Shown: one piece after another, positions 2,888-22,870 of the stretch | Numbering within the stretch: position 1 is the first letter of the stretch | Layout: each line of letters begins with the position of its first letter | Source of the DNA: Escherichia coli | GTDB lineage: Bacteria; Pseudomonadota; Gammaproteobacteria; Enterobacterales; Enterobacteriaceae | Strand: one strand, 5' to 3' | Assembly: GCF_011045215.1 (NCBI RefSeq) | Contig: NZ_CP049201.1 | DNA: 64,000 nt | The notes under the pieces: generated by a model | Told to the model about the DNA's origin: nothing | Seen by the model: the letters and a program-made list of their open reading frames with translations, nothing else | Databases searched by the model: none | Position numbers and translations under genes: made by a program

Positions 2888-4367
2888 CACCATTCCGTCG
2901 AATACGCTGGTTCCGTTGTTTTATGCGGAAATGGATAACTCGGCGGCGAATACTGCACAGGACAGCGGAGCATCGCTGCTGATTGGTCATGCCAATAACG
3001 GTGCAGAGATTGTTGCCAACAGTCTGGTACTGATGCCGTCGGCAGACTATGCACGCCAGATTTGTGGTGCGGGAAGTCAGCTGGCGCGTATGGTCGAGGC
3101 TTATCGCCAGACCGACCCGTTTGGTGAGCTGTATGTGATTGCCGTTCCTGAATCCACAGGCGCGGCGGCAACGGTTACGCTGACGGTGACCGGGGCGGCA
3201 ACCGAAACCGGCACGGTGAATGTCTATGTGGGACGTACCCGCGTGCAGGCTCCGGTGACCAACGGCGATAACGTCACGACGATTGCCAGCAGTATCAAAG
3301 ATGCCATCAATGCCGTTCCGGCCCTGCCGTTTACGGCTTCATCTTCGGCAGGCGTGGTCACACTGACCGCGCGTCATAAGGGGCTTTGCGGGAATGAAAT
3401 TCCTGTCAGCCTCAATTACTACGGCTTTGGTGGGGGCGAAGTGCTGCCAGCGGGCGTACAGATTGCCGTGGCGACGGGTACCGCCGGAACGGGTGCTCCG
3501 GTTCTCACCGGCGCGGTGGCTGCAATGGCGGATGAGCCGTTTGATTATATCGGCCTGCCGTTCAACGACACGGCCTCCGTTAACACGCTGATGACCGAGA
3601 TGAACGATACCAGCGGTCGCTGGAGCTATGCGCGTCAGCTGTATGGTCATGTGTATACGGCAAAGATCGGCACGCTGTCAGAACTGGTGACCGCAGGTGA
3701 CCAGTTTAACCAGCAGCACATTACCCTGGCGGGGTACGAAAAAGAGACCCAGACGCCTGCCGACGAACTGGCGGCAAGCCGTACCGCCCGCGCAGCGGTG
3801 TTTATTCGCAACGATCCGGCACGTCCCACGCAGACCGGTGAGCTGGTGGGTATGCTGCCTGCGCCGAAGGGGAAACGGTTCACGATGACCGAACAACAGA
3901 CCCTGCTGTCTCATGGCGTGGCAACGGCGTATGTCGAAAGCGGGGTACTGCGCATTCAGCGTGATGTCACCACGTACAGGAAAAACGCTTACGGGGTTGC
4001 GGATAACAGCTACCTAGACAGTGAGACTCTGCATACCAGCGCGTATGTACTGCGCAAACTGAAATCCGTCATTACCAGTAAGTACGGGCGTCACAAGCTT
4101 GCCAGTGACGGTACCCGCTTTGGTCCCGGTCAGGCGATTGTCACCCCGGCGGTGATCAAAGGGGAACTGCTGGCAACCTACCGTCAGCTTGAGCGTGCGG
4201 GGATCGTGGAAAACTACGCACTGTTTAAGCAGTACCTAGTTGTGGAGCGTGATGCCAGCGATCCGAACCGCCTGAACACGCTGTTCCCGCCTGACTATGT
4301 TAACCAGTTGCGTGTCTTTGCCGTGGTTAACCAGTTCCGTCTTCAGTATTCAGAGGAGTCCGCATAA
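2871..4367 (+). CDS. phage contractile tail sheath protein
   Basis: 498 aa; size and sequence character typical of Mu/P2-type sheath proteins; followed by tube and chaperone genes. Confidence 0.9.
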   Translation: MTISFNTIPSNTLVPLFYAEMDNSAANTAQDSGASLLIGHANNGAEIVANSLVLMPSADYARQICGAGSQLARMVEAYRQTDPFGELYVIAVPESTGAAATVTLTVTGAATETGTVNVYVGRTRVQAPVTNGDNVTTIASSIKDAINAVPALPFTASSSAGVVTLTARHKGLCGNEIPVSLNYYGFGGGEVLPAGVQIAVATGTAGTGAPVLTGAVAAMADEPFDYIGLPFNDTASVNTLMTEMNDTSGRWSYARQLYGHVYTAKIGTLSELVTAGDQFNQQHITLAGYEKETQTPADELAASRTARAAVFIRNDPARPTQTGELVGMLPAPKGKRFTMTEQQTLLSHGVATAYVESGVLRIQRDVTTYRKNAYGVADNSYLDSETLHTSAYVLRKLKSVITSKYGRHKLASDGTRFGPGQAIVTPAVIKGELLATYRQLERAGIVENYALFKQYLVVERDASDPNRLNTLFPPDYVNQLRVFAVVNQFRLQYSEESA

Positions 4368-4723
4368 TGGCCCGTATCGGGGGAACCTGTTATTTCAAAA
4401 TTGACGGTCAGCAGCTATCGCTGACCGGCGGCATTGAGGTGCCCATGAACAGGACGGTCAATGATGACATCATCGGCCTGGACGGTTCAGTGGACCGCAA
4501 GGAAACTCACCGTGCGCCTTATGTCAAAGGGACCTTCAAGGTGCCGAAGAATTTTCCGGTGAGCAAAATCACCTCGTCTGATGAGATGACCATCACTGCC
4601 GAGCTGGCGAACGGTCAGGTCTATGTACTGTCGTCTGCCTGGCTGCACGGCGAAGCGAACCATAATGCCGAAGAAGGCACGGTCGATCTTGAGTTCCACG
4701 GTGAAGAAGGGGATTACCAGTGA
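4367..4723 (+). CDS. phage tail tube protein
   Basis: 118 aa, coupled to the sheath gene by overlapping stop/start. Confidence 0.8.
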   Translation: MARIGGTCYFKIDGQQLSLTGGIEVPMNRTVNDDIIGLDGSVDRKETHRAPYVKGTFKVPKNFPVSKITSSDEMTITAELANGQVYVLSSAWLHGEANHNAEEGTVDLEFHGEEGDYQ

Positions 4724-5043
4724 TTGAGCTTGTACTTAAAAAACCGATCATCGCCCACAAAGAAACACTGCATGTGCTGGAAATACGTGAGCCTACGTAT
4801 GACGAGATTGAGGCGCTGGGGTTCCCTTTCTCTGTTTCGCCTGATGGTGGTATGAAAATGGACAGTCAGGTGGCGCTGAAATATATCCCGCTTCTGGCCG
4901 GGATCCCGCGCTCGTCTGCAGCGCAGATGACGAAGCTGGATATTTTCAAGGCAGGCATGATTGTAATGCGTTTTTTTACCGGCTTGGAGACGGAAGAGAC
5001 CTCCGGAAGCGATTCTACAATGTCGCGTGGTTCTGGAAATTAA
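4720..5043 (+). CDS. phage tail assembly chaperone
   Basis: 107 aa located between the tube and tape-measure genes. Confidence 0.6.
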   Translation: MIELVLKKPIIAHKETLHVLEIREPTYDEIEALGFPFSVSPDGGMKMDSQVALKYIPLLAGIPRSSAAQMTKLDIFKAGMIVMRFFTGLETEETSGSDSTMSRGSGN

Positions 5044-5127
5044 ACCCCCTTGAACTTCGCCGGACGGCTATTTCCCACTTTGCTGATCTGGAGGCAGAGG
5101 CCGTCCGTATAAATGAGGAGATGAAGC

Positions 5128-7035
5128 ATGGCTGATAATTTTCAGCTGAAAGCCATCATCACCGCCGTTGACAGGCTATCCGGCCCGCTTAAAGGTATGC
5201 AGCGTCAGCTTAAGGGATTTCAGAAAGAAGTCTCCAGCCTTGCTCTGGGCGCTGCCGGGGCGGGTACTGCAATAATGGGGGCACTGGTACTCCCTGTAAA
5301 ATCAGCCATCACCCTTGAATCGAAGATGGCTGATGTCCGCAAAGTGGTGGACGGTCTGGATACGCCGGATGCGTTTAAGGCCATGACGGAGCAGGTGCGT
5401 GACCTGTCAACCGAACTGCCTATGTCGGCGGAAGGTATCGCTGAAATCGTGGCGGCGGGTGGTCAGGCCGGGATTGCACGTGATGAACTGATGCAGTTTG
5501 CCACTGATGCGGTGAAGATGGGCGTGGCCTTTGATACCACGGCTGAAGAGTCCGGGCAGATGATGGCCCAGTGGCGTACTGCGTTTAATATGACGCAGGA
5601 TGAAGTGGCCGGGCTGGCTGACAAAATCAACTACCTTGGTAATACCGGCCCGGCGAACGCGAAGAAAATCTCCGATATTGTTACGCGTATTGGTCCTTTA
5701 GGTGGTGTTGCAGGTGTGGCTTCCGGCGAAATCGCGGCAATGGGGGCAACCATTGCCGGGATGGGCGTGGAGTCAGAAATTGCCGCCACAGGGATCAAGA
5801 ACTTCATGCTTTCCCTGACCGCGGGAAATTCTGCGACAAAATCGCAGAAACAGGCATTGCGTTTTCTGCGGATCAATCCGAAGAAATTAGCTGCTGATAT
5901 GCAGAAAGATGCCCGGGGCACCATGCTATCTGTACTGGATGCGATGGCTAAAGTGCCTAAAGAAAAACGGGCAGCTGTGCTGAATGCCCTGTTCGGGAAA
6001 GAGTCTCTGGGCGCGATAGCACCTCTGCTGACTAACCTTGATTTGTTGCGTACCAACTTCAGGCGGGTTGCGGATTCCCAGCAGTATGGCAGTTCGATGC
6101 AGAAGGAATATGCTTCGAGGGCAGCGACGACGGAAAACCAGCTTTTACTTCTGCAAAATCAACTTGATGCCATTTCTTCCACGCTGGGGGAAACGTTTCT
6201 TCCTGAGGTTAATGATGGTCTTGAAGCGGTAAAACCGCTCCTTGAGGAAGTGAGAACGTTTGTCCGTGAAAACCCGGAGCTCGTTAAGACCATTGCTAAA
6301 ATCGGTCTGGCCTTACTGACGGTGGGAGCCGCTGCAGGCTCTTTGTCCAGAATTATGAAAGTTCTCGGCGGTGTGATGAATATGACGCCTGCTAAGGGGC
6401 TGATTGCTCTTCTGGTTGGTGGCGCTTACCTCATTATTGATAACTGGGAAACCGTAGGTCCTGTCATAAAAAAAGTCTGGCACGTGATGGATGAAACGGC
6501 GCAGGCGATGGGGGGATGGGAAACTGTTCTGAAAGCGATTGCCCTGTTTATGGCAACCAAATGGGTTGCTGACGTTACCAAATCCATTACCGCAGTGACC
6601 AGAGAGATGCGTACGCTGGGGAAGGTATCGGCAGAAACGGGATTGATGGGGAAAGGCCGCGGCTTTATCGGGAAGGCCGGGGTATATGGTTTTCTGGGAA
6701 CCCTGATGTATGAGCCGGTTAAAGATACTCTGGAAAGTGTTGTTCCTGAAGATACGGTTAACTGGCTGGATAATAAAGGGCTGTTTCTGGCTTCAGACTG
6801 GACGCCTTTTTTTGATCGTAAAGAGTACGAGCAATATCAGGCCAGCCTGAGTCAGTACAAACCCAATGTTCCGCTGTTGAATCCATCTTCTTCCATGACA
6901 CAGCACAGCGAGCTGAAAGTCACGTTCGAGAATGCTCCGCCAGGTATGAAGATAATTGATGTACCGGACAAAGCCGATCCCCTGATGAAAATCACGCACG
7001 ATGTGGGGTATTCCCCTTTTCGTTTTCCACGATAA
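5128..7035 (+). CDS. phage tail tape measure protein
   Basis: 635 aa, Ala/Gly-rich with a hydrophobic central segment; canonical position. Confidence 0.85.
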   Translation: MADNFQLKAIITAVDRLSGPLKGMQRQLKGFQKEVSSLALGAAGAGTAIMGALVLPVKSAITLESKMADVRKVVDGLDTPDAFKAMTEQVRDLSTELPMSAEGIAEIVAAGGQAGIARDELMQFATDAVKMGVAFDTTAEESGQMMAQWRTAFNMTQDEVAGLADKINYLGNTGPANAKKISDIVTRIGPLGGVAGVASGEIAAMGATIAGMGVESEIAATGIKNFMLSLTAGNSATKSQKQALRFLRINPKKLAADMQKDARGTMLSVLDAMAKVPKEKRAAVLNALFGKESLGAIAPLLTNLDLLRTNFRRVADSQQYGSSMQKEYASRAATTENQLLLLQNQLDAISSTLGETFLPEVNDGLEAVKPLLEEVRTFVRENPELVKTIAKIGLALLTVGAAAGSLSRIMKVLGGVMNMTPAKGLIALLVGGAYLIIDNWETVGPVIKKVWHVMDETAQAMGGWETVLKAIALFMATKWVADVTKSITAVTREMRTLGKVSAETGLMGKGRGFIGKAGVYGFLGTLMYEPVKDTLESVVPEDTVNWLDNKGLFLASDWTPFFDRKEYEQYQASLSQYKPNVPLLNPSSSMTQHSELKVTFENAPPGMKIIDVPDKADPLMKITHDVGYSPFRFPR

Positions 7036-7059
7036 CGCAGTCCTTTTTGAGGTCAGTCT

Positions 7060-8436
7060 ATGGATTTATCCTCATTTCCCACCCGACCTTCATTACTTTC
7101 GTCGTCTTCAGGCTGGCGTGACAGACTTCAGGACGCGTCATTTCGCGGCGTATCGTTTAAGGTTGAAGAAGAAAGTGCGGGAACCGGTCGCCGTGTGGAA
7201 ACACACGAATACCCGAACCGCGACAAGCCCTATACCGAAGATCTGGGAAAAGTTACTTTCCGCCCGTCCATCACGGCTTATGTGGTGGGAGATGACTGCT
7301 TTGACCAGCGCGATCGCCTGATTGATGCGCTGAATAAACCCGGTCCCGGCACGCTTGTCCATCCGACATACGGTGAGCTGAAAGTCTGTGTTGACGGGGA
7401 AGTTCGGGTCAGCACATCGAAAAGTGAAGGGCGTATTGTCCGCTTTGACCTGAAGTTTGTCGAAGCGGGAGAACTCTCTTACCCCACATCAGGTGCGGCG
7501 ACGGCGCAGACGCTGATGTCATCCTGTTCTGCACTGGATGACTGCATCAGTGACAGTTTCAGTGGTTTCAGTATCGATGGCGTGGCGGATTTTGTGCAGA
7601 ACGACGTCGTCGGTAATGCCAGCACAATGCTGGGGTATGTTTCTGATGCGATGAAAGTGGTGGATTCTGCCGTATCGGATGCTGCCAGGCTGTTGCAGGG
7701 GGATATCTCGGTACTTCTGCCGCCGCCATCGTCAGGAAAAAATTTCGTTGAGCAGGTGCAGAAAATGTGGCGTACCGGGAAACGCCTTTATGGTAACGCC
7801 AGCGACCTGGTCACCATGATCAAAACGCTTTCCGGTGTCAGCCTCGGCAGCGATCTGCAACCGCGCGGCGTCTGGAAAACGGACAGTAAAACCACCGCCA
7901 CGGCGACGCAGCAGCGTAACGTGGTTGCCAGCATCCTTCGTACGACCGCAATCAGCGAAGCGGCGTATGCCGTCACCCGATTGCCTGCGCCAACAACTTC
8001 TGCGGTGATGCAGAATGCCGCAGTGGGGCAGTCAACAACACCCGCGCAGAGCTCCGGCTGGCCTTCCGTCACGCATCCGGCACTGAACAATGCACCGGCG
8101 GTGAAAAACACGGTTGACCTGCCAACGTGGGAAGAACTGACCGACATTCGCGACACACTGAATACGGCAATTGATAAGGAGTTGTCCCGTACAACCAGTG
8201 ATGCGCTGTTTCTGGCGCTGCGCCGGGTGAAAGCAGATCTGAATGCGGATATCAACACGCGCCTTGAACAGTCTGCTCGGATCATTCAGCGCACACCGGA
8301 TGAGGTTTTACCCGCGCTGGTGCTGGCGGCGACCTGGTTTGATAACGCGGCGCGTGACGCGGACATTATCCGGCGTAATGCCATTACGCATCCCGGCTTT
8401 GTGCCGGTGATCCCTCTGAAGGTGCCAGTGCAATGA
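7060..8436 (+). CDS. DNA circularization protein (Mu N-like)
   Basis: 458 aa; position after the tape measure, as in Mu-like tail modules. Confidence 0.65.
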   Translation: MDLSSFPTRPSLLSSSSGWRDRLQDASFRGVSFKVEEESAGTGRRVETHEYPNRDKPYTEDLGKVTFRPSITAYVVGDDCFDQRDRLIDALNKPGPGTLVHPTYGELKVCVDGEVRVSTSKSEGRIVRFDLKFVEAGELSYPTSGAATAQTLMSSCSALDDCISDSFSGFSIDGVADFVQNDVVGNASTMLGYVSDAMKVVDSAVSDAARLLQGDISVLLPPPSSGKNFVEQVQKMWRTGKRLYGNASDLVTMIKTLSGVSLGSDLQPRGVWKTDSKTTATATQQRNVVASILRTTAISEAAYAVTRLPAPTTSAVMQNAAVGQSTTPAQSSGWPSVTHPALNNAPAVKNTVDLPTWEELTDIRDTLNTAIDKELSRTTSDALFLALRRVKADLNADINTRLEQSARIIQRTPDEVLPALVLAATWFDNAARDADIIRRNAITHPGFVPVIPLKVPVQ

Positions 8437-9512
8437 ACGACAATGTCACGCTACGGGTAAATGGCCGGGAGTGGAATGGCTGGACATCGGTGCGCATCGG
8501 TGCCGGTATTGAACGGCTGGCGCGGGATTTCAGTGTGGAGATCACCCGCCAGTGGCCGGGTGATGAGGGTATCACCACGCTTCAGCCGCGCATTAAAAAC
8601 GGTTCAAAAGTGGAGGTGCTGATTGGTGATGAGCTGGTGATCACCGGCTGGGTGGAGGCGACGCCCGTTCGTTACGATGCCCGTTCGGTCAGCACCGGTA
8701 TTGCCGGACGTAGTCTGACGGCTGACCTGATTGACTGTGCAGCCGAACCGACACAGTTTAACGGACGCTCGCTGGTGCAGATTGCGCAGGCGCTTGCTGC
8801 GCCTTTCGGCATTGAGGTGGTGAACAGCGGTGCGCCGTCGGGTGTTATTCCTGATGTTCAGCCTGATCACGGTGAAACGGTGATTGAGGTAATCAACAAA
8901 ATACTCGGTCAGCAGCAGGCACTGGCTTACGACGATCCGCACGGCAGGCTGGTGATTGGCGGTATTGGCTCAACGCGGGCACATACCGCGCTGGTACTTG
9001 GGGAAAACATCCTTTCCTGCGATACGGAGAAGAGTATCCGGGAGCGGTTTTCAGTTTACCAGGTGGCGGGGCAGCGTGCCGGAAACGACGATGATTTCGG
9101 TGAGGCCACCACCACCGCGCTGCGGGCCCGCACAGAGGACGCATTTATTGCCCGTTACCGTCCGATGTATATCAGGCAGACAGGGCAGGCCACGGGGGCT
9201 GGCTGTATTGCGCGTGCTGACTTTGAAGCCCGGCAACGGGCGGCGCGGACGGATGAAACCACCTATGTGGTGCAGGGCTGGCGACAGGGTAACGGTACGC
9301 TGTGGCAGCCCAACCAGCGGGTGATTGTCTTTGATCCGGTCTGTGGTTTTGACAATACCGAACTGCTTGTTTCGGAAGTCACGTTTACTCAGGACCAGAA
9401 CGGCACCCTGACGGAAATCCGTGTCGGCCCGCCTGATGCTTATCTGCCTGAACCCGATGCCCCCGGCGCGCAGAAAAAGAAAAAAGCCAGAGTACAGGAG
9501 GACCCGTTCTGA
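8433..9512 (+). CDS. baseplate hub / tail protein (Mu P/gp44-like, P2 gpD-like)
   Basis: 359 aa; overlapping-start gene chain within the baseplate module. Confidence 0.7.
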   Translation: MNDNVTLRVNGREWNGWTSVRIGAGIERLARDFSVEITRQWPGDEGITTLQPRIKNGSKVEVLIGDELVITGWVEATPVRYDARSVSTGIAGRSLTADLIDCAAEPTQFNGRSLVQIAQALAAPFGIEVVNSGAPSGVIPDVQPDHGETVIEVINKILGQQQALAYDDPHGRLVIGGIGSTRAHTALVLGENILSCDTEKSIRERFSVYQVAGQRAGNDDDFGEATTTALRARTEDAFIARYRPMYIRQTGQATGAGCIARADFEARQRAARTDETTYVVQGWRQGNGTLWQPNQRVIVFDPVCGFDNTELLVSEVTFTQDQNGTLTEIRVGPPDAYLPEPDAPGAQKKKKARVQEDPF

Positions 9513-10060
9513 TGAGGACGATTGAAGCCATGCAGCGACAACTTCTCGGCCTGATTGGGCGGGCAGTGGTGAAAAGTATCAGCGCCGCCACGAAATGTCA
9601 GACCGTGGATGTGTCCCTGATTGCCGGTGAACCCAAAGCCGGGGTTGAACATCTTGAACCCTACGGTTTTACCGCAAGGGCAAACAGCGGTGCGGAAGCG
9701 GTGGTGTTGTTTCCGGATGGCGACCGTTCTCATGCGGTGGTTGTTACGGTGTCGGACCGGCGCTACCGCCTGAAAGGGCTGCAGACGGGTGAGGTGGCTG
9801 TCTATGACGATCAGGGGCAGTCTGTGACGCTGACCCGGGAGGGGATCGTGGTGGACGGTGCAGGTAAAACGATCACGTTTCGCAATGCGCCCAGAGCACG
9901 TTTTGAAATGGACCTTGAAGTGACCGGACAGGTGAAAGACCTGTGCGACTCCGGCGGCACTACCATGTCAGCGATGCGGCTTGCCTATAACGGGCATCGT
10001 CACAGAGAGAACGGTCAGGGCAGTAACACCGACAAACCTGATAAAGCGATGGAGGCATGA
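9512..10060 (+). CDS. baseplate assembly protein V (spike, Mu gp45-like)
   Basis: 182 aa; position between the hub and gp46-like genes. Confidence 0.7.
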   Translation: MRTIEAMQRQLLGLIGRAVVKSISAATKCQTVDVSLIAGEPKAGVEHLEPYGFTARANSGAEAVVLFPDGDRSHAVVVTVSDRRYRLKGLQTGEVAVYDDQGQSVTLTREGIVVDGAGKTITFRNAPRARFEMDLEVTGQVKDLCDSGGTTMSAMRLAYNGHRHRENGQGSNTDKPDKAMEA

Positions 10061-10485
10061 TGGAACTGTGGCTGACGGTGAACGGTAAACGCACCTGCGC
10101 CAGCGCACCGCTGGATCCGCTGACCCGCGCCGTGGTGATTTCCATGTTTACCTGGCGGCGGGCGGAGCCTGATGACAACGCCGACGTCCCGATGGGATGG
10201 TGGGGGGATACCTGGCCTGCGGTACAGAATGACCGTTACGGCTCCCGACTGTGGCTGCTTCAGCGCAGCAAACTGACCAATCAGCTGGTGCAGACGGTAA
10301 GGGGGTATATCCGCGAATGCCTGCAATGGATGATTGATGACGGCGTGGTGTCCCGTATTGATCTGGATATCCGCCGCACCGGGATTAATGAGCTGGGTAA
10401 CAGTATCACCCTCTGGCGTCGTGACGGACCGATAATGATTTCTTTTGATGATCTGTGGAGTGCGATAACGCATGGCGGACAGTGA
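10057..10485 (+). CDS. phage GP46 family baseplate protein
   Basis: 142 aa; baseplate module position. Confidence 0.7.
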   Translation: MMELWLTVNGKRTCASAPLDPLTRAVVISMFTWRRAEPDDNADVPMGWWGDTWPAVQNDRYGSRLWLLQRSKLTNQLVQTVRGYIRECLQWMIDDGVVSRIDLDIRRTGINELGNSITLWRRDGPIMISFDDLWSAITHGGQ

Positions 10486-11530
10486 ATTTCAGCGCCCGAC
10501 GCTGGCAGAAAATATCAGTATGCTCCGTAACGATTTATTCGCCAGGCTGGACGTCAGCGACACGCTCCGGCGCATGGATGAAGACGTGCGGGCAAAGGTG
10601 TATGCGGCGGCGCTGCATACGGTTTACGGTTACATCGATTATCTGGCAATGAACATGCTGCCTGACCTGTGCGATGAGTCCTGGCTGGCGCGACATGCTG
10701 CGATGAAACGGTGTCCGCGCAAGGGGGCCACGGCTGCCAGCGGGTATATGCGCTGGGAAGGTGTCAGCGATGGCCTGAAGGTGACCGCCGGGAGCGTGAT
10801 TCAGCGCGCTGACCTGGTTCAGTACACGGCAACTGCTGATGCAACCAGCTCCGGTGGTGTCCTGCGCGTGCCGATCACTTGCTCAAGTGCAGGCGCGGTC
10901 GGTAACGCTGACGACGGTACGGCATTAATCCTGGTCACGCCGGTGAATGGTCTGCCGTCTTCCGGTGTTGCAGATACCCTGACTGGCGGATTCGATACTG
11001 AAGATCTGGAAACGTGGCGCGCCCGCGTCATTGAGCGGTATTACTGGACGCCTCAGGGCGGGGCTGACGGGGACTATGTCGTCTGGGCTAAAGAAGTGCC
11101 CGGCATTACCCGCGCATGGACATACCGTCACTGGATGGGAACGGGAACTGTCGGTGTGATGATTGCCAGCAGTGACCTGATTAATCCCATTCCGGAAGAA
11201 TCAACGGAAACGGCGGCAAGACAACATATCGGGCCACTGGCCCCGGTGGCAGGCTCTGATTTGTATGTGTTCAGGCCGGTGGCACATACGGTGGATTTTC
11301 ATATCCGCGTGACGCCGGACACACCGGAAATACGGGCTGCCATCACCGCGGAGTTGCGTTCGTTCCTGCTGCGTGATGGTTATCCGCAGGGAGAACTGAA
11401 GGTATCGCGTATCAGTGAGGCGATTTCCGGTGCGAACGGGGAATACAGCCATCAGTTGCTTGCACCGGCAGACAATATCTCCATTGCAAAAAATGAACTG
11501 GCGGTTCTGGGGACGATTTCATGGACGTGA
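10472..11530 (+). CDS. baseplate J-like protein (Mu gp47 / e14 JayE-like)
   Basis: 352 aa; size and sequence character of the baseplate J family. Confidence 0.85.
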
Positions 11531-12105
11531 CAAACGATGATTACATCCGTCTGTTGTCGGCACTGTTGCCCCCCGGTCCGGCGTGGTCAGCCAGCGATCC
11601 GGCGATTGCCGGTGCGGCACCGTCATTAACCCGTGTTCATCAGCGTGCGGATGCCCTGATGCGGGAGCTGGATCCGCGCACAACCACCGAACTGATAAAC
11701 CGCTGGGAGCGTCTGTGCGGCCTGCCGGATGAATGTATTCCGGCAGGGACGCAGACCCTTCGCCAGCGTCAGCAACGGCTGGATGCGAAGGTTAATCTGG
11801 CGGGCGGCATCAATGAGGATTTTTACCTTGCACAGCTTGCTGCCCTGGGCAGACCAGACGCCACCATCACGCGATACGACAAAAGCACGTTCACCTGCTC
11901 ATCTGCCTGTACTGACGCGGTGAATGCGCCGGAATGGCGGTATTACTGGCAGGTCAACATGCCAGCCGCCACCAACACCACCTGGATGACATGTGGCGAT
12001 CCCTGTGATTCCGCACTGCGTATCTGGGGCGACACCGTAGTCGAGTGTGTGCTTAACAAACTCTGCCCGTCGCATACCTACGTAATTTTTAAATATCCGG
12101 AGTAA
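11521..12105 (+). CDS. YmfQ-like tail protein (DUF2313, Mu gp48-like)
   Basis: 194 aa with a Cys-rich C-terminus; position directly upstream of the tail fibre gene, as in e14. Confidence 0.75.
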
Positions 12106-12108
12106 TCC

Positions 12109-12642
12109 ATGCATCGTATAGACACGAAAACCGCGCAGAAGGATAAGTTCGGCGCGGGTAAGAACGGTTTTACCCGTGGTAACCCCCAGACCGGCACACC
12201 TGCCACCGATCTGGATGATGACTACTTTGACATGTTGCAGGAGGAGCTTTGCAGCGTGGTGGAGGCATCCGGTACCAGCCTGGAGAAGGGGAGGCATGAC
12301 CAGTTGCTTACCGCACTTCGCGCGCTGCTGTTAAGCCGCAAGAATCCGTTTGGCGATATCAAATCGGACGGCACGGTGAAAACGGCTCTCGAAAACCTTG
12401 GTTTGGGAGAAGCGGCAAAACGGGATGTGGGGACAGGGGAAAATCAGATACCGGACATGGCCTCTTTTGCCAGTGGTGATGGATGGATGAAATTACCCAA
12501 CGGGAAAATCCTGCAATATGGTCGTGGTGCGGTTACGCCGACATTATCGACGCAAACAATGAGAATTACATTCAGCATCCCTTTTCCTAAAAAGTGGACT
12601 GCGCCATGCTTACTCATTCTGGTGATGGTGGTGCGCCTTTAG
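12109..12642 (+). CDS. tail fibre protein: constant N-terminal part fused to the currently selected short variable C-terminal part
   Basis: 177 aa; contains the left crossover site encoding ...ENLGLGE...; the variable part may carry a frameshift near 12585-12600 (alternative frame reads ...[26 protein letters not shown]). Confidence 0.7.
12386..12411. repeat. left crossover site of the Pin-type invertible segment
   Basis: CTCTCGAAAACCTTGGTTTGGGAGAA: fits the Gin/Hin/Pin site form (TTNTCNNAAACC-NN-GGTTT...); inverted copy of the site at 14288-14313 (17/18 identical in the shared half). Confidence 0.7.
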
Positions 12643-12791
12643 GTGCTGGGCGGGGATTCGTGATGACCGCAGAAGGCCCAACATTAACCTGTTTTTAATT
12701 CCGCTTACAGAACTGCATCAACCAGTTCCACAGTATCGATGAATTACAGTTGGTGGGCTGTTGGTGAGTAATTTTATTCAGGGTGATTTAT

Positions 12792-13235
12792 ATGAACGAA
12801 TATGTTTATAGCGCAAGGAATAATGCTTTTTCCCTGTGGATATGATTGATAAATATAAATCAGAGGGATGGGATTTATCAGATGCAAAGGAGGTGAATCA
12901 AAATATTATCAGTGAGTTTATGGCTGAACCGCCACAAGGAAAAATCCGTATTGCCGGAGATGATGGGATGCCTGCGTGGGCAGATATTCCTCCACCCACG
13001 CATGAAGAGCTTATTGAAATTACTGAATCAGAAAGACAGCTACTAATTAACCGGGCCAACGAATACATGAACAGTAAATCTGTGGCCCGGTAAAGCCGCT
13101 ATTGGTCGTCTGAAAGATGATGAACTGGCGCAATATAATTTGTGGCTGGATTATCTGGACGCACTGGAGCTGATCGATACTTCCGGTGCGCCAGATATTG
13201 AATGGCCTACGCCTCCGGCAGTTCAGGCCAGATGA
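12792..13235 (+). pseudogene. tail fibre assembly protein (Tfa) disrupted by two frameshifts
   Basis: N-terminus MNEYVYSARNNAFSLWI* (12792-12845), middle segment in ORF 12836-13093, C-terminus ...AAIGRLKDDELAQYNLWLDYLDALELIDTSGAPDIEWPTPPA in a third frame ending at 13233-13235. Confidence 0.55.
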
Positions 13236-13809
13236 CATCCGGCGCGGTGCTGGTATCTGTTGCCGTCACCGCGTCAATGTAATCCAGCACAGCGTTAAGG
13301 CGGGTTGTTTCTGCCTGCGTCAGATTCCGTCCGGCCTGTAATTTCAGTTGAATCAGACTGATGGAGGCCATTGCAGTATGAATCAGCGACTGGCGCAGTG
13401 CTTCTGCTGCATCTACTGCTGCGCCGTGCTGTGCCTCGGTATCTGTCACCCATTTCTCACCATTCCATTTATCGTATGGCGTTAACGGGGCGATAGTGGT
13501 TGTATTTTCAGGATAATCACCCGGAGCTGTGATTTTTTCGATTCTCCTGTTTCGGTGCTATAGACGATTTCACCACGATGATCTGGCACATATTCCCATG
13601 AATTTAAATCTACAGAGCGACAGATTGCATAACCAGCTTTATGTGTAATAAGCATCCAAACAAGAACATGCCGGGATACCGACGCCGACAGCGAGATATT
13701 CAGTTGATGTAGAAATATATTCACGCGTTTCACCATCATAATTATAAATGATAATGTCTCCCGCTTTTATGGCAATGAGTTCACTATTTAATACAGCTTT
13801 ATTCATCAT
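13207..13809 (-). pseudogene. second tail fibre assembly protein (Tfa') disrupted by two frameshifts
   Basis: Starts ATG at 13809 overlapping the fibre stop (ATGA); frame switches near 13640-13660 and inside the T6/A6 tract at 13533-13538; C-terminus ...RLNAVLDYIDAVTATDTSTAPDVIWPELPEA. Confidence 0.55.
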
Positions 13810-14313
13810 GCAGCCCTCACAATATAATTAAAGGCGATGTTACGTGGACGATTTTCATTTGCTGTTGGAACAACATTTGCCGCCGAGAAGTGAACATCTT
13901 GTCGGATTTTTCGGTCATTAGCGTATGTCATAGACACATTGATGTTATTCCGGACTGAGGTACCTCCGTAAAAGCCCCACTCACACTTTGAACATCGACA
14001 ATTGCATTAATTTCGCTGTTTACGCGCAACTGACCAAAACCGCCAGTAATGTTTCGAATAGCATCTCCTTGCGATGAAAGCAGAGTTCGCCCACTATCCA
14101 CACCACGTTCATCATCCCATCCACGAATAAATTCACCGCGTAAATCAGGCAATTTATTTGTCGGGTAAGCCTTTGCCAGTTCCGGGTATTCTTCAGCAGA
14201 AAAAGCCGCACCATTGCATTTCAGCCAGCCTGTTGGCGGAGTGGCTGAAGGCCACGGAACAGGCACCCCAACCCCACATGCTGAGCCTTCTCCCAAACCA
14301 ACGTTTATGAAAA
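13806..14313 (-). pseudogene. alternative tail-fibre variable C-terminal segment (promoterless; joins the constant part after inversion), frameshifted
   Basis: Begins in frame at the right crossover site (...FINVGLGE...); main frame stops at 13928-13930, while the conserved fibre terminus ...EWGFYGGTSVRNNINVSMTYANDRKIRQDVHFSAANVVPTANENRPRNIAFNYIVRAA lies in another frame ending at 13806-13808. Confidence 0.55.
14288..14313. repeat. right crossover site of the Pin-type invertible segment
   Basis: TTCTCCCAAACCAACGTTTATGAAAA; inverted relative to 12386-12411; 55 bp upstream of the invertase start. Confidence 0.7.
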
Positions 14314-14367
14314 TGCAGAAATAACGAGCAAATGGCATCATTCCTGCTTTTGTCAGGGAGATCTACC

Positions 14368-15850
<1,483 letters not shown>

Positions 15851-15930
15851 CTAACCCTTTGAATTTACATAGCGCAAAAAGATACCTTTCCTCATAATGT
15901 GAGCTAATTTTATGTTTCGTTTGATGATCG

Positions 15931-15993
15931 GGTCGGTCTCGAAAACCGGAGTAGGGGCAACTCTACCGGGGTTCAAATCCCCCTCTCTCGCCA
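15931..15993 (+). tRNA. partial tRNA-Ser 3' fragment (serU-like anticodon/T-arm/acceptor 3' strand; pseudo-tRNA, probable prophage att core)
   Basis: GGTCTCGAAAACCGGAGTAGGGGCAACTCTACCGGGGTTCAAATCCCCCTCTCTCGCCA matches the 3' two-thirds of tRNA-Ser as recalled; the 5' acceptor/D-arm is absent. Confidence 0.6.
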
Positions 15994-16571
15994 CTTTATC
16001 AATGACTTATCTCCCGACTTCCCGTCTTGCTTTTCCTAAACAGAACAATCGTAGAATATTCTTGAAGGGTTAGATCGTCACTGTTTTCTGTTCGATACTG
16101 TGACATTCAGCACTTGATTCGCTATGGATCTGACAGGAAGGTTTTGAGCGAAAATCTGCAGTTATTCAGTCGTTTTCTTATCGGTCACCATTATTCTTTT
16201 AGACATTGATCCTACAAAGCTGCCGCAAAGTTGGTGGTGGGAACTGAAGTTGCGTAGAGAAGGGGTCAATACCCGGAGGCAAACATGGGCTGGCAAAAGT
16301 GTAGCGGTATTAGGCGCAGCTATTTAGCCTAGTTATGTTTTATGAAAACTTGATATCATATAAGTGTCTTACTTATTGGCTGTAAATAAGTTTTTCTAAG
16401 GAATTGTTTCTTGAGTATCATTTGTAACTGTAACGGAATTTATAATCCTTTGCTTTATTGTTACGGTATTTTTATCACACCCTATTTTTAGTGGTTTTTA
16501 TACTGAAGTTTGGCAAAGTGAACTTTATATACATATACTTCATCCTGTTTCAGTTAAATTGGGTGGATGAT

Positions 16572-17315
16572 ATGGCAACTACATGTTCAGTTATATTGAT
16601 TTTGGAGTCCTTTGATGTTTATTTCGGAAAAGAGAGTGTGTTTCTGGAGAGAGGTTCATCTGTACTTGTCGACTCTAGCTCTAGAGATTTTTTCCTGACA
16701 TATCCTGAAAGAGTGATAGTGGCGGATTTTGGCGCTGAGTTTATTAGTCGCTATTTGAAAGCTAATAACTTAAGGGATATTTCTGATTGTAGGGAATATC
16801 CATCTTATTTAAAAATAAACTTTGCTGACTTCAGTTTAATTAAAGGATTAATTAGTTGGGCTAATCACTGTGCTGAATACATAGAAATTTTTGATGAGTC
16901 TATTGCTTTTACATGTCTCTCTGCATTTTCTTCTGAAAAACAATTTGGAGTATTTCTGTTTGGATGTTTGAAAAGCACAGGGGCTAAAGTTAAAACGATT
17001 ATTCATACGGATTTATCTGCACCATGGCGTCTTAAGGATATATCATCAAGATTATATCTCAGCGAAAGTTTACTAAAGAGGAAATTGAAAGAAGAGGGGG
17101 TATCATTCAGTAAGATCATACTTGATGAGAGGATGCAAATGGCTGAATATTTACTCAGCACTCGTTGTTATCCTATTAGTAAAGTAGCTAAGGTCTGTGG
17201 TTATGCCAGTGTCTCATACTTTACTTATGTATTTAGACGTTATTTTGGTGTTTCTCCAAGTCAATACTCTCAGAGGAGTTCAGAAAGTAAAATTCTTACT
17301 CACCAGGGAATCTGA
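16572..17315 (+). CDS. AraC-family transcriptional regulator (AppY/EnvY/Rns-like)
   Basis: C-terminal HTH ...ISKVAKVCGYASVSYFTYVFRRYFGVSPSQY; N-terminus MATTCSVILILESFD aligns with the AppY start MDYVCSVVFICQSFD; AT-rich gene; the first 38 codons of track ORF 16458 are rejected. Confidence 0.8.
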   Translation: MATTCSVILILESFDVYFGKESVFLERGSSVLVDSSSRDFFLTYPERVIVADFGAEFISRYLKANNLRDISDCREYPSYLKINFADFSLIKGLISWANHCAEYIEIFDESIAFTCLSAFSSEKQFGVFLFGCLKSTGAKVKTIIHTDLSAPWRLKDISSRLYLSESLLKRKLKEEGVSFSKIILDERMQMAEYLLSTRCYPISKVAKVCGYASVSYFTYVFRRYFGVSPSQYSQRSSESKILTHQGI

Positions 17316-18069: not shown

Positions 18070-18115
18070 ATTCGTAATGCGAAGGTCGTAGGTTCGACTC
18101 CTATTATCGGCACCA
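18070..18115 (+). tRNA. partial tRNA-Thr (thrW) 3' fragment (pseudo-tRNA / att core)
   Basis: ATTCGTAATGCGAAGGTCGTAGGTTCGACTCCTATTATCGGCACCA equals the 3' 46 nt of thrW as recalled; the 5' half is replaced by unrelated sequence. Confidence 0.7.
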
Positions 18116-18280
18116 TTTCAACGTCTTTTCCCGTCTATTAAAATCCAAAAAACCCGCATATACTCTAGCTTTGAGCGCCCCCGATAGTGTTTTAACGTCT
18201 ATCAATATCTCCTAAAATCCACGTCTTTTGGGGGTATATTCGGGGGTATATGCTGTGTGGGCTACTGGAGATACCCCCAA

Positions 18281-19471
18281 ATGAAACTAAATGCCCGTCA
18301 GGTCGATACGGCCAAACCGAAAGAAAAACCCTATAAACTGGCCGATGGTGGTGGGCTTTATCTGCTTGTTAATCCCAATGGTTCCCGGTACTGGCGTTTA
18401 AAGTACCGGGTAGCCGGAAAAGAAAAGCTGTTGGCGCTGGGGGTATATCCCGATGTAACCCTGGCTGATGCCAGGGCGAAACGAGATGAGGCCAAAAGGG
18501 GTATGGCTGGGGGGATCGACCCGAACGAAGCGAAGCGGGAAGAAAAATTGAACCGCGAAGCGCAAATCAAAAACACCTTCGAAGAAATCGCCAGAGAGTG
18601 GCATACAGAACGGCAGAAGAAATGGTCTGAGGGGTACGCCTCGGACATTCTGGAAGCATTCAGTAAAGACATATTCCCTTGGATTGGAAAACGCCCCATC
18701 ACGGAAATAAAGCCCCTTGATTTGCTGAATACGCTTAAACGCATCGAGAATAGGGGAGCGACTGAAAAGGCCCGTAAGGTTCGCCAGTGGTGCGGGGAGG
18801 TCTGGAAGTATGCGATCGTTACCGCCCGCGCAGAATATAACCCCGCCCCTGATCTATCTGTGGCTATGGAAGGACACGAAGGGGAGCACTTCCCCCATCT
18901 GGAAGCCGAAGAGTTACCCGAATTTTTCCAGACGCTGGCGACGGCAAAAAGTAACGTTCAGGTTATTTTGGGGCTGCGTCTGCTTATTCTTGTGGGGTTA
19001 CGTCCGGTTGAATTACGCGCGGCCCCGTGGTCAGAGATTGATTTTGATAATGCCTTGTGGGAGATCCCCAAAGAGCGAATGAAGAAAAGACGTCCGCACG
19101 TTGTCCCGCTTTCTCGCCAGGCTATGGTTATTCTCGGGCAATTAAAAGAGTTGTCGGGCCGCAATCCTTTCATTTTTCCGGGCCGGAACGACCCGCGAAA
19201 GCCAATGAGTGAAGGAGCAATTAATCAGCTAATAAAGCGACTCGGGTATAAGGGCAAAGCTTGCGGGCATGGTTTCCGACATACCATGAGCACAATTTTG
19301 TATGAGAAAGGGTATAACACCGAATGGATCGAAACCCAGCTTGCACATGTTGATAAAAATACCATCCGTGGCACATATAATCATGCCCGCTATCTGGATG
19401 GACGCCGGGAAATGCTTCAATGGTATGCCGACTATATGGAATCGCTGGCGAGTGGCAGGGTAAAAGATTAG
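18281..19471 (+). CDS. P4-type tyrosine integrase
   Basis: MKLNARQVDTAKPKEKPYKLADGGGLYLLVNPNGSRYWRLKYR... is the canonical P4/CP4 integrase N-terminus; C-terminal HxxR...Y catalytic region present; lies 165 bp after the thrW fragment. Confidence 0.9.
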   Translation: MKLNARQVDTAKPKEKPYKLADGGGLYLLVNPNGSRYWRLKYRVAGKEKLLALGVYPDVTLADARAKRDEAKRGMAGGIDPNEAKREEKLNREAQIKNTFEEIAREWHTERQKKWSEGYASDILEAFSKDIFPWIGKRPITEIKPLDLLNTLKRIENRGATEKARKVRQWCGEVWKYAIVTARAEYNPAPDLSVAMEGHEGEHFPHLEAEELPEFFQTLATAKSNVQVILGLRLLILVGLRPVELRAAPWSEIDFDNALWEIPKERMKKRRPHVVPLSRQAMVILGQLKELSGRNPFIFPGRNDPRKPMSEGAINQLIKRLGYKGKACGHGFRHTMSTILYEKGYNTEWIETQLAHVDKNTIRGTYNHARYLDGRREMLQWYADYMESLASGRVKD

Positions 19472-19511
19472 AGAAGGTCTAAGACGGGAATACCGCTAAA
19501 TTAGATGTTAG

Positions 19512-19547
19512 GCGTGGACACTCAGCATCCACGCTTAAACTTTTTAT
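19512..19547 (+). terminator. rho-independent terminator of the integrase gene
   Basis: GCGTGGA-(9 nt)-TCCACGC hairpin followed by a T-rich tract (TTAAACTTTTTATT). Confidence 0.6.
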
Positions 19548-20041
19548 TATCATTTTCAATGAATTATGATTTTGGAAATTTTATAAAAAACACCAAGATT
19601 ACTAATCTATTGATTAATATGAAATATTTCTTTTTTTGATTATTAATTGTGCTCTTGATTGTTGTTTTTATGGTGTTAATTTATAAAAATCTTATTTATA
19701 GGAATTAACATTATATAGTTGGCACTTTTTGCTAAAATCTGTTTTTATTGTGTTTTATTTTTATTTCATTTTTGTTGTTGTTTGTTTGATTTTTAGTGTC
19801 TTTATATCTGGCTAATTGATTTCACTCAAACCATAAATCCTTTCAGAGGCTTCTAGAGTCTTCCTGAGGCTTAAATTGACTTAACTAAAAGTCAAGCCCC
19901 ACATCCCACATACATCTTTTTGACATGCACTTATGGCGTGAATAACAATGACTTCATCCAATCTACAGGCATCCTATAAAGTCAATGTCTGTATATAGAA
20001 AGATATTACATAACGTTTGAATGTTAATAGCGGGTGTGAAT

Positions 20042-20260
20042 ATGAGAAATGATGCAATGCAGCTTTTAAACCAGGGAAAAAGATTGATCCGCCTGCCTGA
20101 AGTTATGATGCTTACGGGGCGGTGTCGCGCCAGTATTTATAAAGATATCAATGCAAATGTCTTTCCAAAGCCGATTAAAACCGGCCCGCGTTCTGTCGCA
20201 TGGGTTGAGGGTGAGATCAGCGACTGGATCGACAACAAAATCAAAGAGCGCAAAGTGTAA
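20042..20260 (+). CDS. alpA: AlpA-family phage regulatory protein (excisionase-like)
   Basis: ...RLIRLPEVMMLTGRCRASIYKDINANVFPKPIKTGPRSVAWVEGEISDWI... matches the AlpA pattern; start is ambiguous (20042 or 20057). Confidence 0.75.
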   Translation: MRNDAMQLLNQGKRLIRLPEVMMLTGRCRASIYKDINANVFPKPIKTGPRSVAWVEGEISDWIDNKIKERKV

Positions 20261-20459
20261 ATCTGATTTTATTCAGAGATGAATATGATTTATTTGAATG
20301 CTAAGGATTTTGTGTATTCTTTTTGTTGTAAATACTCGTAGCATGGGGAGTTGGCAGTATTTATTCAGTATTAGGTTAAGTAGTGATAAAATACCAGGTA
20401 ATGCCGGTTTATGCAGTGTTTAATATATTTGTTGCTGGCGAAAATTTACGGAAAATTAA

Positions 20460-21332
20460 ATGAACATTACTGATATTATCAGCCATCGCGTATATCGTGA
20501 TGCGGATCTTGCTGTCATTAATAACACGGCATTTATTCAGCCTTATGACGGTTGTCACCGTGGGTTGTATGAAATGCGCGTTATTGAACTTTATCGCCTG
20601 AATAAAATGATGCACCTTACCCACGAATATAAATCTATTTCCGGGGAAAGCGTAGGCATTCCGGCGACTAAAGAGGAACTGTTTACACTGGTTAATAAAG
20701 GGCATGAACTTTGCCAGTCTGAACGGGAAAAGCTGGCGGCACTTGAAGCAGAATTGCAGCGTCTGCCAAGCCCGGCTGTAATTCCTGCGCCGCAGACGAT
20801 TAAAGAAGCACAGCAGGCCCGTAAATCACTAGAAGATGAAAGATACAGACTGCATCACGCAGCAATTAAAAATCAAGTCAAAGCACAGCAGGAAGAGTTA
20901 TCCATCAGACAAAACATTCTGGAATTGCTCGCGCCGGTTATTGATGTGTTGTTGGCCGTGGAAGATGTGGAACTGCTCGATCTGCGCCGTTCCCTGCCTA
21001 AGTCATCCCTCGATGCTAAGGCATTCAAAAAGGCGATTTCTGAAATTGAGTGTGCTGACCTTGCCTGGCAGAAAATGGATAAACTGGAGATTGCCCTTAA
21101 CAAGGTGGTGAACAACTGCACATATCGCCCGGAAGGAAGCATTAATCCCCGTTTTGTTAACCCTCTTAATGAAGATAAGCGGGAACGCGCCGAAATATCA
21201 CGCGATTATTACAGCTCTGAAATGGCCTTTATTCATACGGTGATGAGTGCAGATGAATATTTAAATTATATGTTGCCGATCCGTCACCAGCAGCGCGCGC
21301 AACGACTCACATTAGAAAGAAATATCAACTAA
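20460..21332 (+). CDS. hypothetical coiled-coil protein (possible capsid scaffold / size-determination factor)
   Basis: 290 aa with a long Gln/Glu/Leu-rich heptad-like central region; immediately upstream of, and on the same strand as, the capsid-like gene. Confidence 0.45.
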   Translation: MNITDIISHRVYRDADLAVINNTAFIQPYDGCHRGLYEMRVIELYRLNKMMHLTHEYKSISGESVGIPATKEELFTLVNKGHELCQSEREKLAALEAELQRLPSPAVIPAPQTIKEAQQARKSLEDERYRLHHAAIKNQVKAQQEELSIRQNILELLAPVIDVLLAVEDVELLDLRRSLPKSSLDAKAFKKAISEIECADLAWQKMDKLEIALNKVVNNCTYRPEGSINPRFVNPLNEDKRERAEISRDYYSSEMAFIHTVMSADEYLNYMLPIRHQQRAQRLTLERNIN

Positions 21333-21341
21333 GGAAGAATT

Positions 21342-22349
21342 ATGTCTTATGTAACACCAGATTATTTAACGCAGTATCACGAAAACCTGATTAAGTCTTT
21401 TAATATTAAATATAAAAACGAAGATACGGGGTATTTCACCATATCACAGCCGGAAAAAGCATCTCCGGATGCATGGGGATGTTCCACGCTTGATGTTAAA
21501 GGCTCGTCCTGGCTGATTGATAATATTTCATTACTGGACATTATCGGTGCGGATGGCACGACGATCACCATCGGTGATGGTTCCCTTTATACAGGCCGTG
21601 CAAAGGAAGGTCGCTTTCATAAGAAACTAAAAACCAACGGAACACCTTTTTTATTATCAGAAACGGATTCCTGCGCCTCATTGACTTATGAAGAAATGGC
21701 GGTAATGGCAAACGCGAAAAATTTCAGTAATGAAATGATCATTTTTTTCAAGAAGGCCGTGGTGCGGGATATGCTCCGTATTGGATTTAACGGCAAGATG
21801 ATTGCCGAAAATACCAACCCGGAACAATATAAAAACGGCGAAGATATCAATATTGGCTGGCACTCGCTGGCAAAAACATTCAATAACGGTTCACAAATTA
21901 TTTCTGATGCTTTCGCACTGGGGAAAGGCGGTGATTTTGCCGATGTTCACGATCTGGCTGATTGCCTCATCACGTCAAAAATCCCCGAAGGTCAGCGCGA
22001 AGATCCGGGCCTTGTGGTGATGGTTGGCGCGCAACTTGCCGCCCGCGAACGACTGAAACTGTTCAACATGGCCGATCAACCACTGACGCTGACGGCGGGG
22101 GATATGCTGACAAGCAGTGTCGCCGGTCGCTTTGCTTTTATCCCGCCGTTTATGCCGGGTAAGCGCCTGGCTGTTACGACGCTGAAAAATTTGCAGATCC
22201 TGACGCTGAAACACAGCCAACGCTACCGCGCGGAGGATATCCCGCAACGAGGTGTTTATGAGCATGGCTATTTACGTGAGGAAGGTTACGCGCTGGGGGA
22301 TGGCTATCTTTACGCGGCCAGCGATGAGAACGCCGTAACGCTGGTTTAA
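21342..22349 (+). CDS. P2 GpN-family major capsid protein homologue
   Basis: Segment LGKGGDFADVHDLADCLITSKIPEGQREDPGLVVMVGAQLAA parallels P2 gpN VGKGGDYASLDALVMDATNNLIEPWYQEDPDLVVIVGRQLLA (recalled from memory); FNGKM... also parallels gpN FNGVK... Confidence 0.6.
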   Translation: MSYVTPDYLTQYHENLIKSFNIKYKNEDTGYFTISQPEKASPDAWGCSTLDVKGSSWLIDNISLLDIIGADGTTITIGDGSLYTGRAKEGRFHKKLKTNGTPFLLSETDSCASLTYEEMAVMANAKNFSNEMIIFFKKAVVRDMLRIGFNGKMIAENTNPEQYKNGEDINIGWHSLAKTFNNGSQIISDAFALGKGGDFADVHDLADCLITSKIPEGQREDPGLVVMVGAQLAARERLKLFNMADQPLTLTAGDMLTSSVAGRFAFIPPFMPGKRLAVTTLKNLQILTLKHSQRYRAEDIPQRGVYEHGYLREEGYALGDGYLYAASDENAVTLV

Positions 22350-22561
22350 GTATCGAGTACAGCCAGCTTTGACAGTGATGGCCAGATAAAAGAAAACCCT
22401 CTCACCGGAACGAACAAGAAACGATAAGAGGGTTTATCAGGAAGATGATTCTACGTGATGAATTATACCGAGAAACAACCGATGCTTACCAGCAAAAACG
22501 CGTCACTGTTTGTGCAGCTGGCACCGTCCGATCTGACGGTGTTTTCCGGAATGGTAAGGAG

Positions 22562-22753
22562 CTATTCCTTTGCCTTTTTGCGCTGTTCTGCTTTCAGCTT
22601 GCGCCCGCAGGCATCCAGCACCCAAGCGGAAAAACTTGAACCCGGATTATCGACTTTTTCGCGTTCTACGCAGGCATCAATTTCTGCGATCATTTCATGC
22701 GGGAAGCGTATTCCCTTGTATGTTGTTTTGCTGTTTATGTGGTTTTTAGTCAT
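22562..22753 (-). CDS. putative small DNA-binding regulator (ribbon-helix-helix-like), about 63 aa
   Basis: MTKNHINSKTTYKGIRFPHEMIAEIDACVEREKV... has RHH-like strand-helix character; divergent from the downstream operon with operators between; start codon uncertain (M15/M24/M33 of the track ORF). Confidence 0.45.
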   Translation of the reverse strand: MTKNHINSKTTYKGIRFPHEMIAEIDACVEREKVDNPGSSFSAWVLDACGRKLKAEQRKKAKE

Positions 22754-22769
22754 GCTGGAAACTCTTAAG

Positions 22770-22870
22770 TGTTTAAACATCAGTAAAGATACAGTAAAGC
22801 CGGACATAACAAAACTGTTTAAACAAAATCTGTTGACTTGTTTAAACACTCAGCATAATGTGTTTAAACA
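22770..22870. promoter_or_regulatory. operator array: four copies of the palindrome TGTTTAAACA within divergent promoters
   Basis: Exact copies at 22770-22779, 22816-22825, 22839-22848 and 22861-22870; TTGACT (22833-22838) and CATAAT (22854-22859) hexamers interleave with the right-hand pair. Confidence 0.6.

Follow-up and report, generated by a model that had tools for sequence, protein, structure and literature searches.

Apparent frameshifts in an e14-type invertible tail-fiber cassette of Escherichia coli are very probably an assembly artifact

Introduction

The closest described systems to the locus analyzed here are the DNA switches of the Din family, which comprises the P-region of the e14 prophage with its invertase Pin, the G segment of phage Mu (Gin), the C segment of phage P1 (Cin) and Hin of Salmonella. 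Like the e14 P-region/Pin switch, the locus combines a serine invertase gene with an adjoining segment, about 1.9 kb long, that has hix/gix-like inverted sites at its two ends, and it shares with the Din-family switches a constant N-terminal fiber part outside the segment, two opposed C-termini inside it, each with its own tfa gene, and the occurrence of both orientations in near-identical relatives. As assembled, however, several of its genes are interrupted by frameshifts. A first-pass annotation of the sequence had offered two explanations for these interruptions: either the fiber cassette is selectively decaying, or they are consensus errors from reads of mixed orientation and thereby indirect evidence of ongoing inversion.

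The residual errors of long-read assemblies are the second described phenomenon of relevance. In nanopore consensus sequences of Enterobacteriaceae, errors at the Dcm motif make up about 70% with default models, followed by errors in homopolymer length (Wick et al., 2019; PMC6591954), and Oxford Nanopore (ONT) reads under-report the length of homopolymers (PMC10039527). Errors in repeat regions often outlast short-read polishing (Polypolish; Wick and Holt). The frameshifts of the present cassette lie in a patch that bears the error signature of unpolished nanopore consensus, and for this reason we judge them to be very probably an assembly artifact, a patch of nanopore-type consensus that escaped polishing, and not the marks of decaying genes.

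Results

The window, that is the whole stretch of 64,000 nucleotides that was analyzed, is part of an E. coli/Shigella chromosome, in which paoABCD shares 99.4% and the ecp-fdeC region 99.1% identity with E. coli. An e14-family prophage contributes its head-tail joining genes and its Mu-like tail genes to positions 1-12105, including those for the sheath, the tube, the tape measure, the DNA-circularization protein and the baseplate (gp44-48/YmfQ); the last of these, ymfQ/gp48 (11521-12105), lies directly upstream of the tail-fiber gene. A search with ARAGORN found no tRNA gene in the window, only 3' fragments. The constant N-terminal part of the fiber gene (12109-12392, + strand) is intact in the list of open reading frames, and the interval 12100-12400 is 100% identical in seven relatives, where RefSeq labels the gene as encoding a gp53-like domain protein or StfP. 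The left crossover site (12393-12412, core AAACCTTGGTTTGGGAGAAG) is an inverted repeat of 20 nt that is 95% complementary to the right copy, which was located by repeat search at 14287-14306; we take the cores of both sites to be hix/gix-like, and crossover sites of the Din family span about 26 bp. The 1.9 kb between these repeats encode a fiber C-terminus and tfa on the + strand, and tfaE and an alternative fiber C-terminus on the - strand. In the relatives, the genes of the module bear the RefSeq names stfP/gp53-like, tail fiber assembly protein, tfaE, phage tail protein, pinE and LEM-3-like GIY-YIG, and an identical cassette layout is annotated in L002, L003, L004 and L017. Once the errors described below are reverted, the window shows two opposed fiber C-termini, each with its cognate assembly gene, together with a constant N-terminus outside the segment, a pair of inverted crossover sites that bound it and a serine recombinase that adjoins it (ORF 14368-14922). 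The element is an ordinary e14/Pin-type invertible tail-fiber switch at the end of an e14-family prophage, and as such of an already known kind.

Alignment to intact relatives placed seven frameshifts within the invertible segment: two in the expressed fiber end, two in each of the Tfa genes and one in the alternative fiber end. The expressed variable C-terminus of the fiber (12413-12771, + strand) is one base short in a homopolymer (A6>A5 at 12589-12593) and has an additional T at 12690. Reading on in the same direction, tfa (12793-13235, + strand; 147 aa when intact) carries T6>T5 at 12827-12831 and an additional T at 13079 with neighboring miscalls at 13078-13082, besides a change in a Dcm site (CCAGG>CCGGG, 13051-13055). 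The alternative assembly gene tfaE (13207-13809, - strand; 200 aa when intact) shows T7>T6 at 13533-13538 and, at 13648-13651, a scramble of 6 nt into 4 nt, which is a garbled Dcm site that reads CCTGGT in the reference and ATAA in the window. For the alternative fiber C-terminus, which lies in the silent orientation (13806-14286, - strand), alignment to the intact relative L016 identified a single break, A5>A4 at 13970-13973, and reversion of this one base yields one open frame.

Further changes were found beyond the segment. The invertase gene pin (14368-14922, + strand) encodes a serine recombinase of 184 aa, whose relatives contain the Pfam domains Resolvase and HTH_7 and are annotated as pinE in RefSeq. 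It has no frameshift, and its only mismatch to L026/L027 in 619 nt (99.8% DNA identity) is a Dcm-site change, CCTGG>CCCGG at 14697-14701, through which the conserved GALAEMER becomes GAPAEMER, an apparent L>P exchange. The LEM-3-like GIY-YIG gene, likewise outside the invertible segment (14980-15754, - strand; 257 aa when intact), carries T7>T6 at 15019-15024, an additional CT at 15387-15388 and a Dcm-site change, CCAGG>CCGGG, at 15450-15454. Six 1-bp deletions follow in non-coding DNA (15955-16550), at 15967 (G5>G4), 15988, 16395, 16468 (T6>T5), 16494 (T6>T5) and 16546, the last inside a Dcm site (CCTGG). With 12 small edits reverted, six genes regain their full length: the fiber (220 aa), Tfa (147 aa), TfaE (201 aa as an open frame), the alternative fiber end, Pin and the GIY-YIG protein (257 aa).

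The breaks noticed in the first-pass annotation are therefore real differences from the relatives at the positions it gave, although it counted five or six frameshifts and confined the cluster to the invertible segment, where there are seven, and the cluster extends to 16546. Its reading of the Tfa genes, with two frame changes in each and one of these in the homopolymer at 13533-13538, holds, as does its single break near 13970-14010 in the alternative fiber C-terminus; the break suspected near 12585-12600 in the current fiber is present, but is accompanied by the second one at 12690. The roughly 12 kb of upstream tail genes are as clean as they were described to be, without an indel in 12.1 kb relative to L018. 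The invertase was also thought to read cleanly, which is correct with respect to frame but not with respect to the L>P exchange, and frameshifts are also present in the GIY-YIG gene past pin.

Measured against near-identical relatives, the affected patch extends from 12588 to 16546 and contains 15 small indel events. Its left edge lies beyond the last intact marker, a Dcm site at 12279, and its right edge before the first intact markers on that side, a T6 tract at 16688 and a Dcm site at 17303. On the right, the patch exceeds the inverted repeat by 2.2 kb and takes in pin, the GIY-YIG gene and non-coding DNA; eight of the indels lie in this part, as far as 16546, with two of them frameshifting the GIY-YIG gene (15018, 15387). 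Between 11900 and 13782, the differences of the window from L004 (E. coli WP2-S18-ESBL-07) consist of six indel events, the miscalls adjacent to them and one isolated change at 13053, which falls in a Dcm site. Between 14307 and 18117 the comparison was made with L026 and L054, which have the same prophage at the same chromosomal place as the window but the segment in the opposite orientation; here eight gap sites and four mismatches were found, two of the latter in Dcm sites.

The balance of indels and substitutions separates this patch from its surroundings. In the patch, indel events and substitutions stand at 15:15, where the 15 substitutions include the adjacent and Dcm-site miscalls, whereas the 35 kb of flanks give 3:260; such clustering goes well past what chance would produce (Fisher p = 2e-14). 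Ordinary SNPs in the patch number only about three (13001, 15767, 17186). A cluster of pseudogenes would be expected to carry indels along with substitutions at the ratio of the neighboring DNA, and 15 indels with about three SNPs, set against 3:260, depart from it. The flank at 1-12100 differs from L018 by 64 substitutions and no indel, the flank at 41000-64000 has 196 substitutions and three indels, all of them intergenic, and ratios are ordinary between 17000 and 37000; a search for a second error patch in the rest of the window found none. The error density, about 20 events in 4 kb or 0.5%, is at the level of a draft consensus and the surrounding 60 kb are clean, which suggests that one stretch missed the correction given to the rest.

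The kinds of changes observed are those expected of uncorrected nanopore consensus, with under-called homopolymers and a concentration on the Dcm motif. Six of the eight reference homopolymers of at least six bases are one base shorter in the patch, compared with 0 of 38 in the flanks (Fisher p = 3e-6), the long homopolymers left intact being A6 at 14503 and T7 at 15041. Deletions number 13 among the 15 indel events, or 16 length changes, of the patch. All five Dcm sites (CCWGG) are altered, compared with 3 of 76 in the flanks (Fisher p = 2e-6): CCAGG>CCGGG at 13051, a garbled CCTGG at 13648, CCTGG>CCCGG at 14697, CCAGG>CCGGG at 15450 and CCTGG>CCT-G at 16544, and no CCWGG remains in the window from 12280 to 17302. 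Three of these sites are changed at the central base only, CCWGG>CCSGG, which is the same change read from either strand, and it is in this direction, from central W to S, that older ONT basecallers miscall Dcm sites. Three events (12690, 13078-13082 and 15387) fall outside both the homopolymer and the Dcm class, and the garbled 4-7-mers are more like miscalls than mutations. To our knowledge, no mutational process would hit five out of five Dcm sites and shorten six out of eight long homopolymers. Deamination of 5-methylcytosine at the Dcm sites was considered separately and rejected, given that it produces C>T, whereas the changes lie at the central W.

The changes are, in addition, private to one assembly. 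At least ten independent assemblies agree among themselves, with the window departing from all of them at the same sites, and the indels are absent from all 5,426 complete E. coli genomes searched. The best match among these genomes is 98.7% identical over 12420-13800, with all genes annotated as intact, and its identity is not higher because of these very indel and miscall events. The first-pass annotation had proposed a comparison with orthologous segments in related prophages; in this comparison, intact near-identical relatives lack all of the events, and across the 5,426 complete genomes and about 40 fetched loci no lesion was shared with any relative. Neither IMG/VR nor the GTDB representative genomes contain the variant 32-mer, and exact protein look-ups for the truncated fiber and for the L>P form of Pin (184 aa and 196 aa) returned no record, whereas the intact neighbors of both are recorded from hundreds to thousands of assemblies. 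When an independent copy of the lesions was sought through intact neighbors (YmfQ, baseplate J, AraC, DNA-circularization protein and FdeC), only relatives with intact cassettes were returned.

Both orientations of the segment are represented among the relatives. L004 and L005 carry the same allele with the segment in opposite orientations, and the same is true of the window in comparison with L026/L054, with the junction half-sites exchanged at the core AACC|TT|GG. At the level of assembled loci, near-identical relatives in both orientations demonstrate inversion in the e14/Pin fiber-switch family independently of the errors.

Discussion

We suggest that one stretch of the window, some 4 kb in length (about 12.5-16.55 kb), was left at the quality of a draft long-read consensus, most likely from Oxford Nanopore sequencing. 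Within this stretch, homopolymers would have been called one base too short, and the methylated cytosine (5-methylcytosine) of the Dcm motif CCWGG would have given rise to miscalls; the outcome would be seven false frameshifts in four cassette genes, two more in the GIY-YIG gene, a false L>P exchange in Pin and six non-coding deletions. The rest of the assembly would have been polished, with this stretch escaping that correction. On the evidence given above, the genes are most likely intact and the same as widespread alleles.

The sequencing platform and the reason why the patch escaped polishing are points that we infer. The likeliest reason is the presence of more than one copy of the module in the genome, or a break of the short-read graph at this place, leaving only long-read consensus. 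The fiber-switch module is found in E. coli genomes at a median of 2 places, and at as many as 11, and contigs of short-read drafts end at or in the module: L029 stops 40 nt beyond the crossover site on the left, and the contigs L039 and L040 begin within the segment. Since the module is often multi-copy and short-read drafts break there, the stretch was probably bridged by, or left with, long-read consensus only. Orientation heterogeneity that breaks the short-read graph, or low short-read coverage, may also have caused a stretch to remain unpolished.

The proposal that the consensus errors stem from the mixing of reads from both segment orientations, and thus report ongoing inversion, has to be considered in this context, and we regard it as rather doubtful. 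The left edge of the patch, between 12279 and 12588, may be identical with the left crossover site (12393-12412), near-identical relatives do exist in both orientations, and the draft contig that ends 40 nt past the left site would fit with orientation heterogeneity helping to break short-read graphs. The patch, however, covers a further 2.2 kb on the far side of the right crossover site, where pin, the GIY-YIG gene and intergenic DNA do not invert, and the drafts that break inside the segment (L039, L040) do so as expected of a repeat boundary. Moreover, the segment interior has the same sequence either way, and mixing alone makes no errors in homopolymers or Dcm sites. As the interior is the same in either orientation and the patch extends past the segment, the errors provide no evidence of ongoing inversion. 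Of the two explanations in the first-pass annotation, that of consensus errors is accordingly supported, although the orientation of the reads is a doubtful cause of them, and the further step, from the errors to inversion in progress, cannot be taken.

Genuine pseudogenization, in which the cassette and its neighbors would be decaying in a cryptic prophage by replication slippage in short repeats, appears very unlikely. It has precedents, in that cryptic prophage modules of the e14 family do decay, with a frameshifted fiber gene in L001, a frameshifted pinE in L018 and a truncated recombinase in L004/L005, and the loss of one base from a homopolymer is the commonest natural frameshift. Against it stand the scarcity of ordinary SNPs (about three beside 15 indels, when the flanks have 260 substitutions to three indels), the alteration of all five Dcm sites, mostly at the central base, which known mutational processes do not bring about, the equal density of events in non-coding DNA, the 12 kb of tail genes in the same prophage without an indel, and the fact that no event is common to any relative. 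The selective decay of the fiber cassette envisaged at first receives no support from these observations either: substitutions are few, non-coding DNA and genes that do not invert are hit as well, the changes are motif-specific and the lesions are private.

A real cluster of local mutations is extremely improbable. Error-prone repair, for example with -1 frameshifts of the Pol IV type, could act around breaks at the invertase sites, and the lesions indeed begin near a recombination site; in E. coli, break-associated stress mutagenesis produces -1 deletions in mononucleotide runs that cluster near the break. Such repair leaves unexplained the central-base changes at the Dcm sites (five out of five sites hit), the garbled 4-7-mers at 13078-13082 and 13648-13651 and the asymmetric position of the patch with respect to the two crossover sites. 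Scarcely credible, too, is a burst of real -1 frameshifts, for example in the repair of Pin-made breaks, that would have killed both fiber cassettes and the GIY-YIG gene in one lineage, with the Dcm changes arising by a methylation-linked process.

Two other candidates were tried and rejected. The frameshifts come in pairs in three genes (-1/+1, -1/+1 and -1/-2), which could be taken for compensation under selection or for programmed frameshifting, but stop codons occur in the intervals that the pairs enclose, compensation would be expected of every second random pair, and the pair in the GIY-YIG gene does not compensate. A chimeric consensus of two diverged paralogous alleles does not fit either, as the window follows a single allele (L004/L026) at all positions that are polymorphic, and the odd variants of the window are found in no other allele.

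There is no new biology in this cassette, and its significance lies in what such a patch, if it is indeed residual long-read error, does to annotation. Pseudogene surveys and annotation pipelines would count six broken genes and a mutant invertase in this cassette, and would infer that the host-range switch of the phage is dead. The practical lesson is that prophage modules that are multi-copy or invertible are the places where residual long-read errors gather. A check that needs no reads is to ask whether the CCWGG sites and long homopolymers are all altered with respect to near-identical relatives.

In comparison with known systems, the patch shares with the residual errors of nanopore consensus (Wick et al., 2019; Polypolish) the errors in homopolymer length with a bias to deletion, the errors at CCAGG/CCTGG, the confinement to a few kb of an assembly that is clean elsewhere and the location in a module that is commonly multi-copy; it differs from the classic error classes in the three events that fit neither. 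Frameshifted fiber and invertase genes do occur in the natural decay of prophage tail-fiber regions, as in e14 of K-12 and in the fiber gene of L001 and pinE of L018, but these cases are single events amid ordinary substitutions, whereas the window combines 15 indels and changes in five out of five Dcm sites with an otherwise identical allele, and the changes continue into non-coding DNA. After reversion of the errors, the module itself does not differ substantially from the Din-family switches. The prophage that it terminates belongs to the e14 family, has a Mu-like tail and sits in the proA-thrW/pao region, and the LEM-3-like GIY-YIG gene comes after the module, in the place that mcrA has in the e14 prophage of K-12.

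Variation around the invertible fibre segment

The DNA 3' of the fibre gene carries cargo that is highly variable among the relatives. In seven loci that share the tail genes of the window (L020, L023, L046, L050, L051, L053 and L055; compared over approximately 12.7-18.2 kb of each locus), an acyltransferase gene stands in place of the invertible cassette and pin, and a cytosine DNA methylase and EcoRII-like restriction pair lies beyond the GIY-YIG gene. The fibre module is also a regular break point of short-read assemblies, as seen in three draft contigs from relatives: one ends at the equivalent of window position 12452, 40 nt beyond the left crossover site (L029), while two others start within the invertible segment (L039 and L040).

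A tRNA-gene 3' fragment is evident at 15936-15995 (GGTTCAAATCCCCC...CGCCA), which we take to resemble the tRNA-Ser gene serU and which is probably the remnant of an old attachment site. Two of the 1-bp deletions of the error patch, the cluster of indels read as nanopore consensus artefact, fall within this fragment. ARAGORN detected no tRNA genes in the window (all 64,000 nt).

Neighboring elements of the window

A P4-like satellite element occupies 18070-30210, adjoining a tRNA-Thr 3' fragment of 46 nt (18070-18115) that is identical to the thrW 3' end of the relative L030. It encodes an integrase (18257-19471) and a DUF927 primase (24614-27376), together with an AlpA-type regulator, a P2-capsid-like gene, an ogr/Delta gene and a Phd/YoeB toxin-antitoxin pair, all within the same interval. 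L026 and L054, two copies of the same prophage at the same chromosomal place, are co-linear with the window elsewhere and both are without the satellite.

Further downstream, fdeC (59718-63971), encoding an inverse autotransporter adhesin of 1417 aa, is intact in the window. A protein look-up recorded this exact allele on only 14 contigs, and in PapM-32-1, the closest complete genome, the fdeC annotation has an internal stop.

Comparison with related switches

In Escherichia coli G47-1 (L018), the e14-family prophage at icd is complete and has mcrA on the far side of pin. The pinE gene of this prophage (L018 20366-20921) carries a frameshift annotation; this lesion, in the same module, could be natural or could equally be artefactual. 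The near-identical E. coli loci L004 (WP2-S18-ESBL-07) and L005 hold opposite orientations of the same fibre segment, and the adjoining recombinase gene is reduced to 123 nt (L004 4893-5015; L005 2790-2912). Either the inversion is older than the truncation of the recombinase, or the cell has a second invertase of the Din family that acts in trans.
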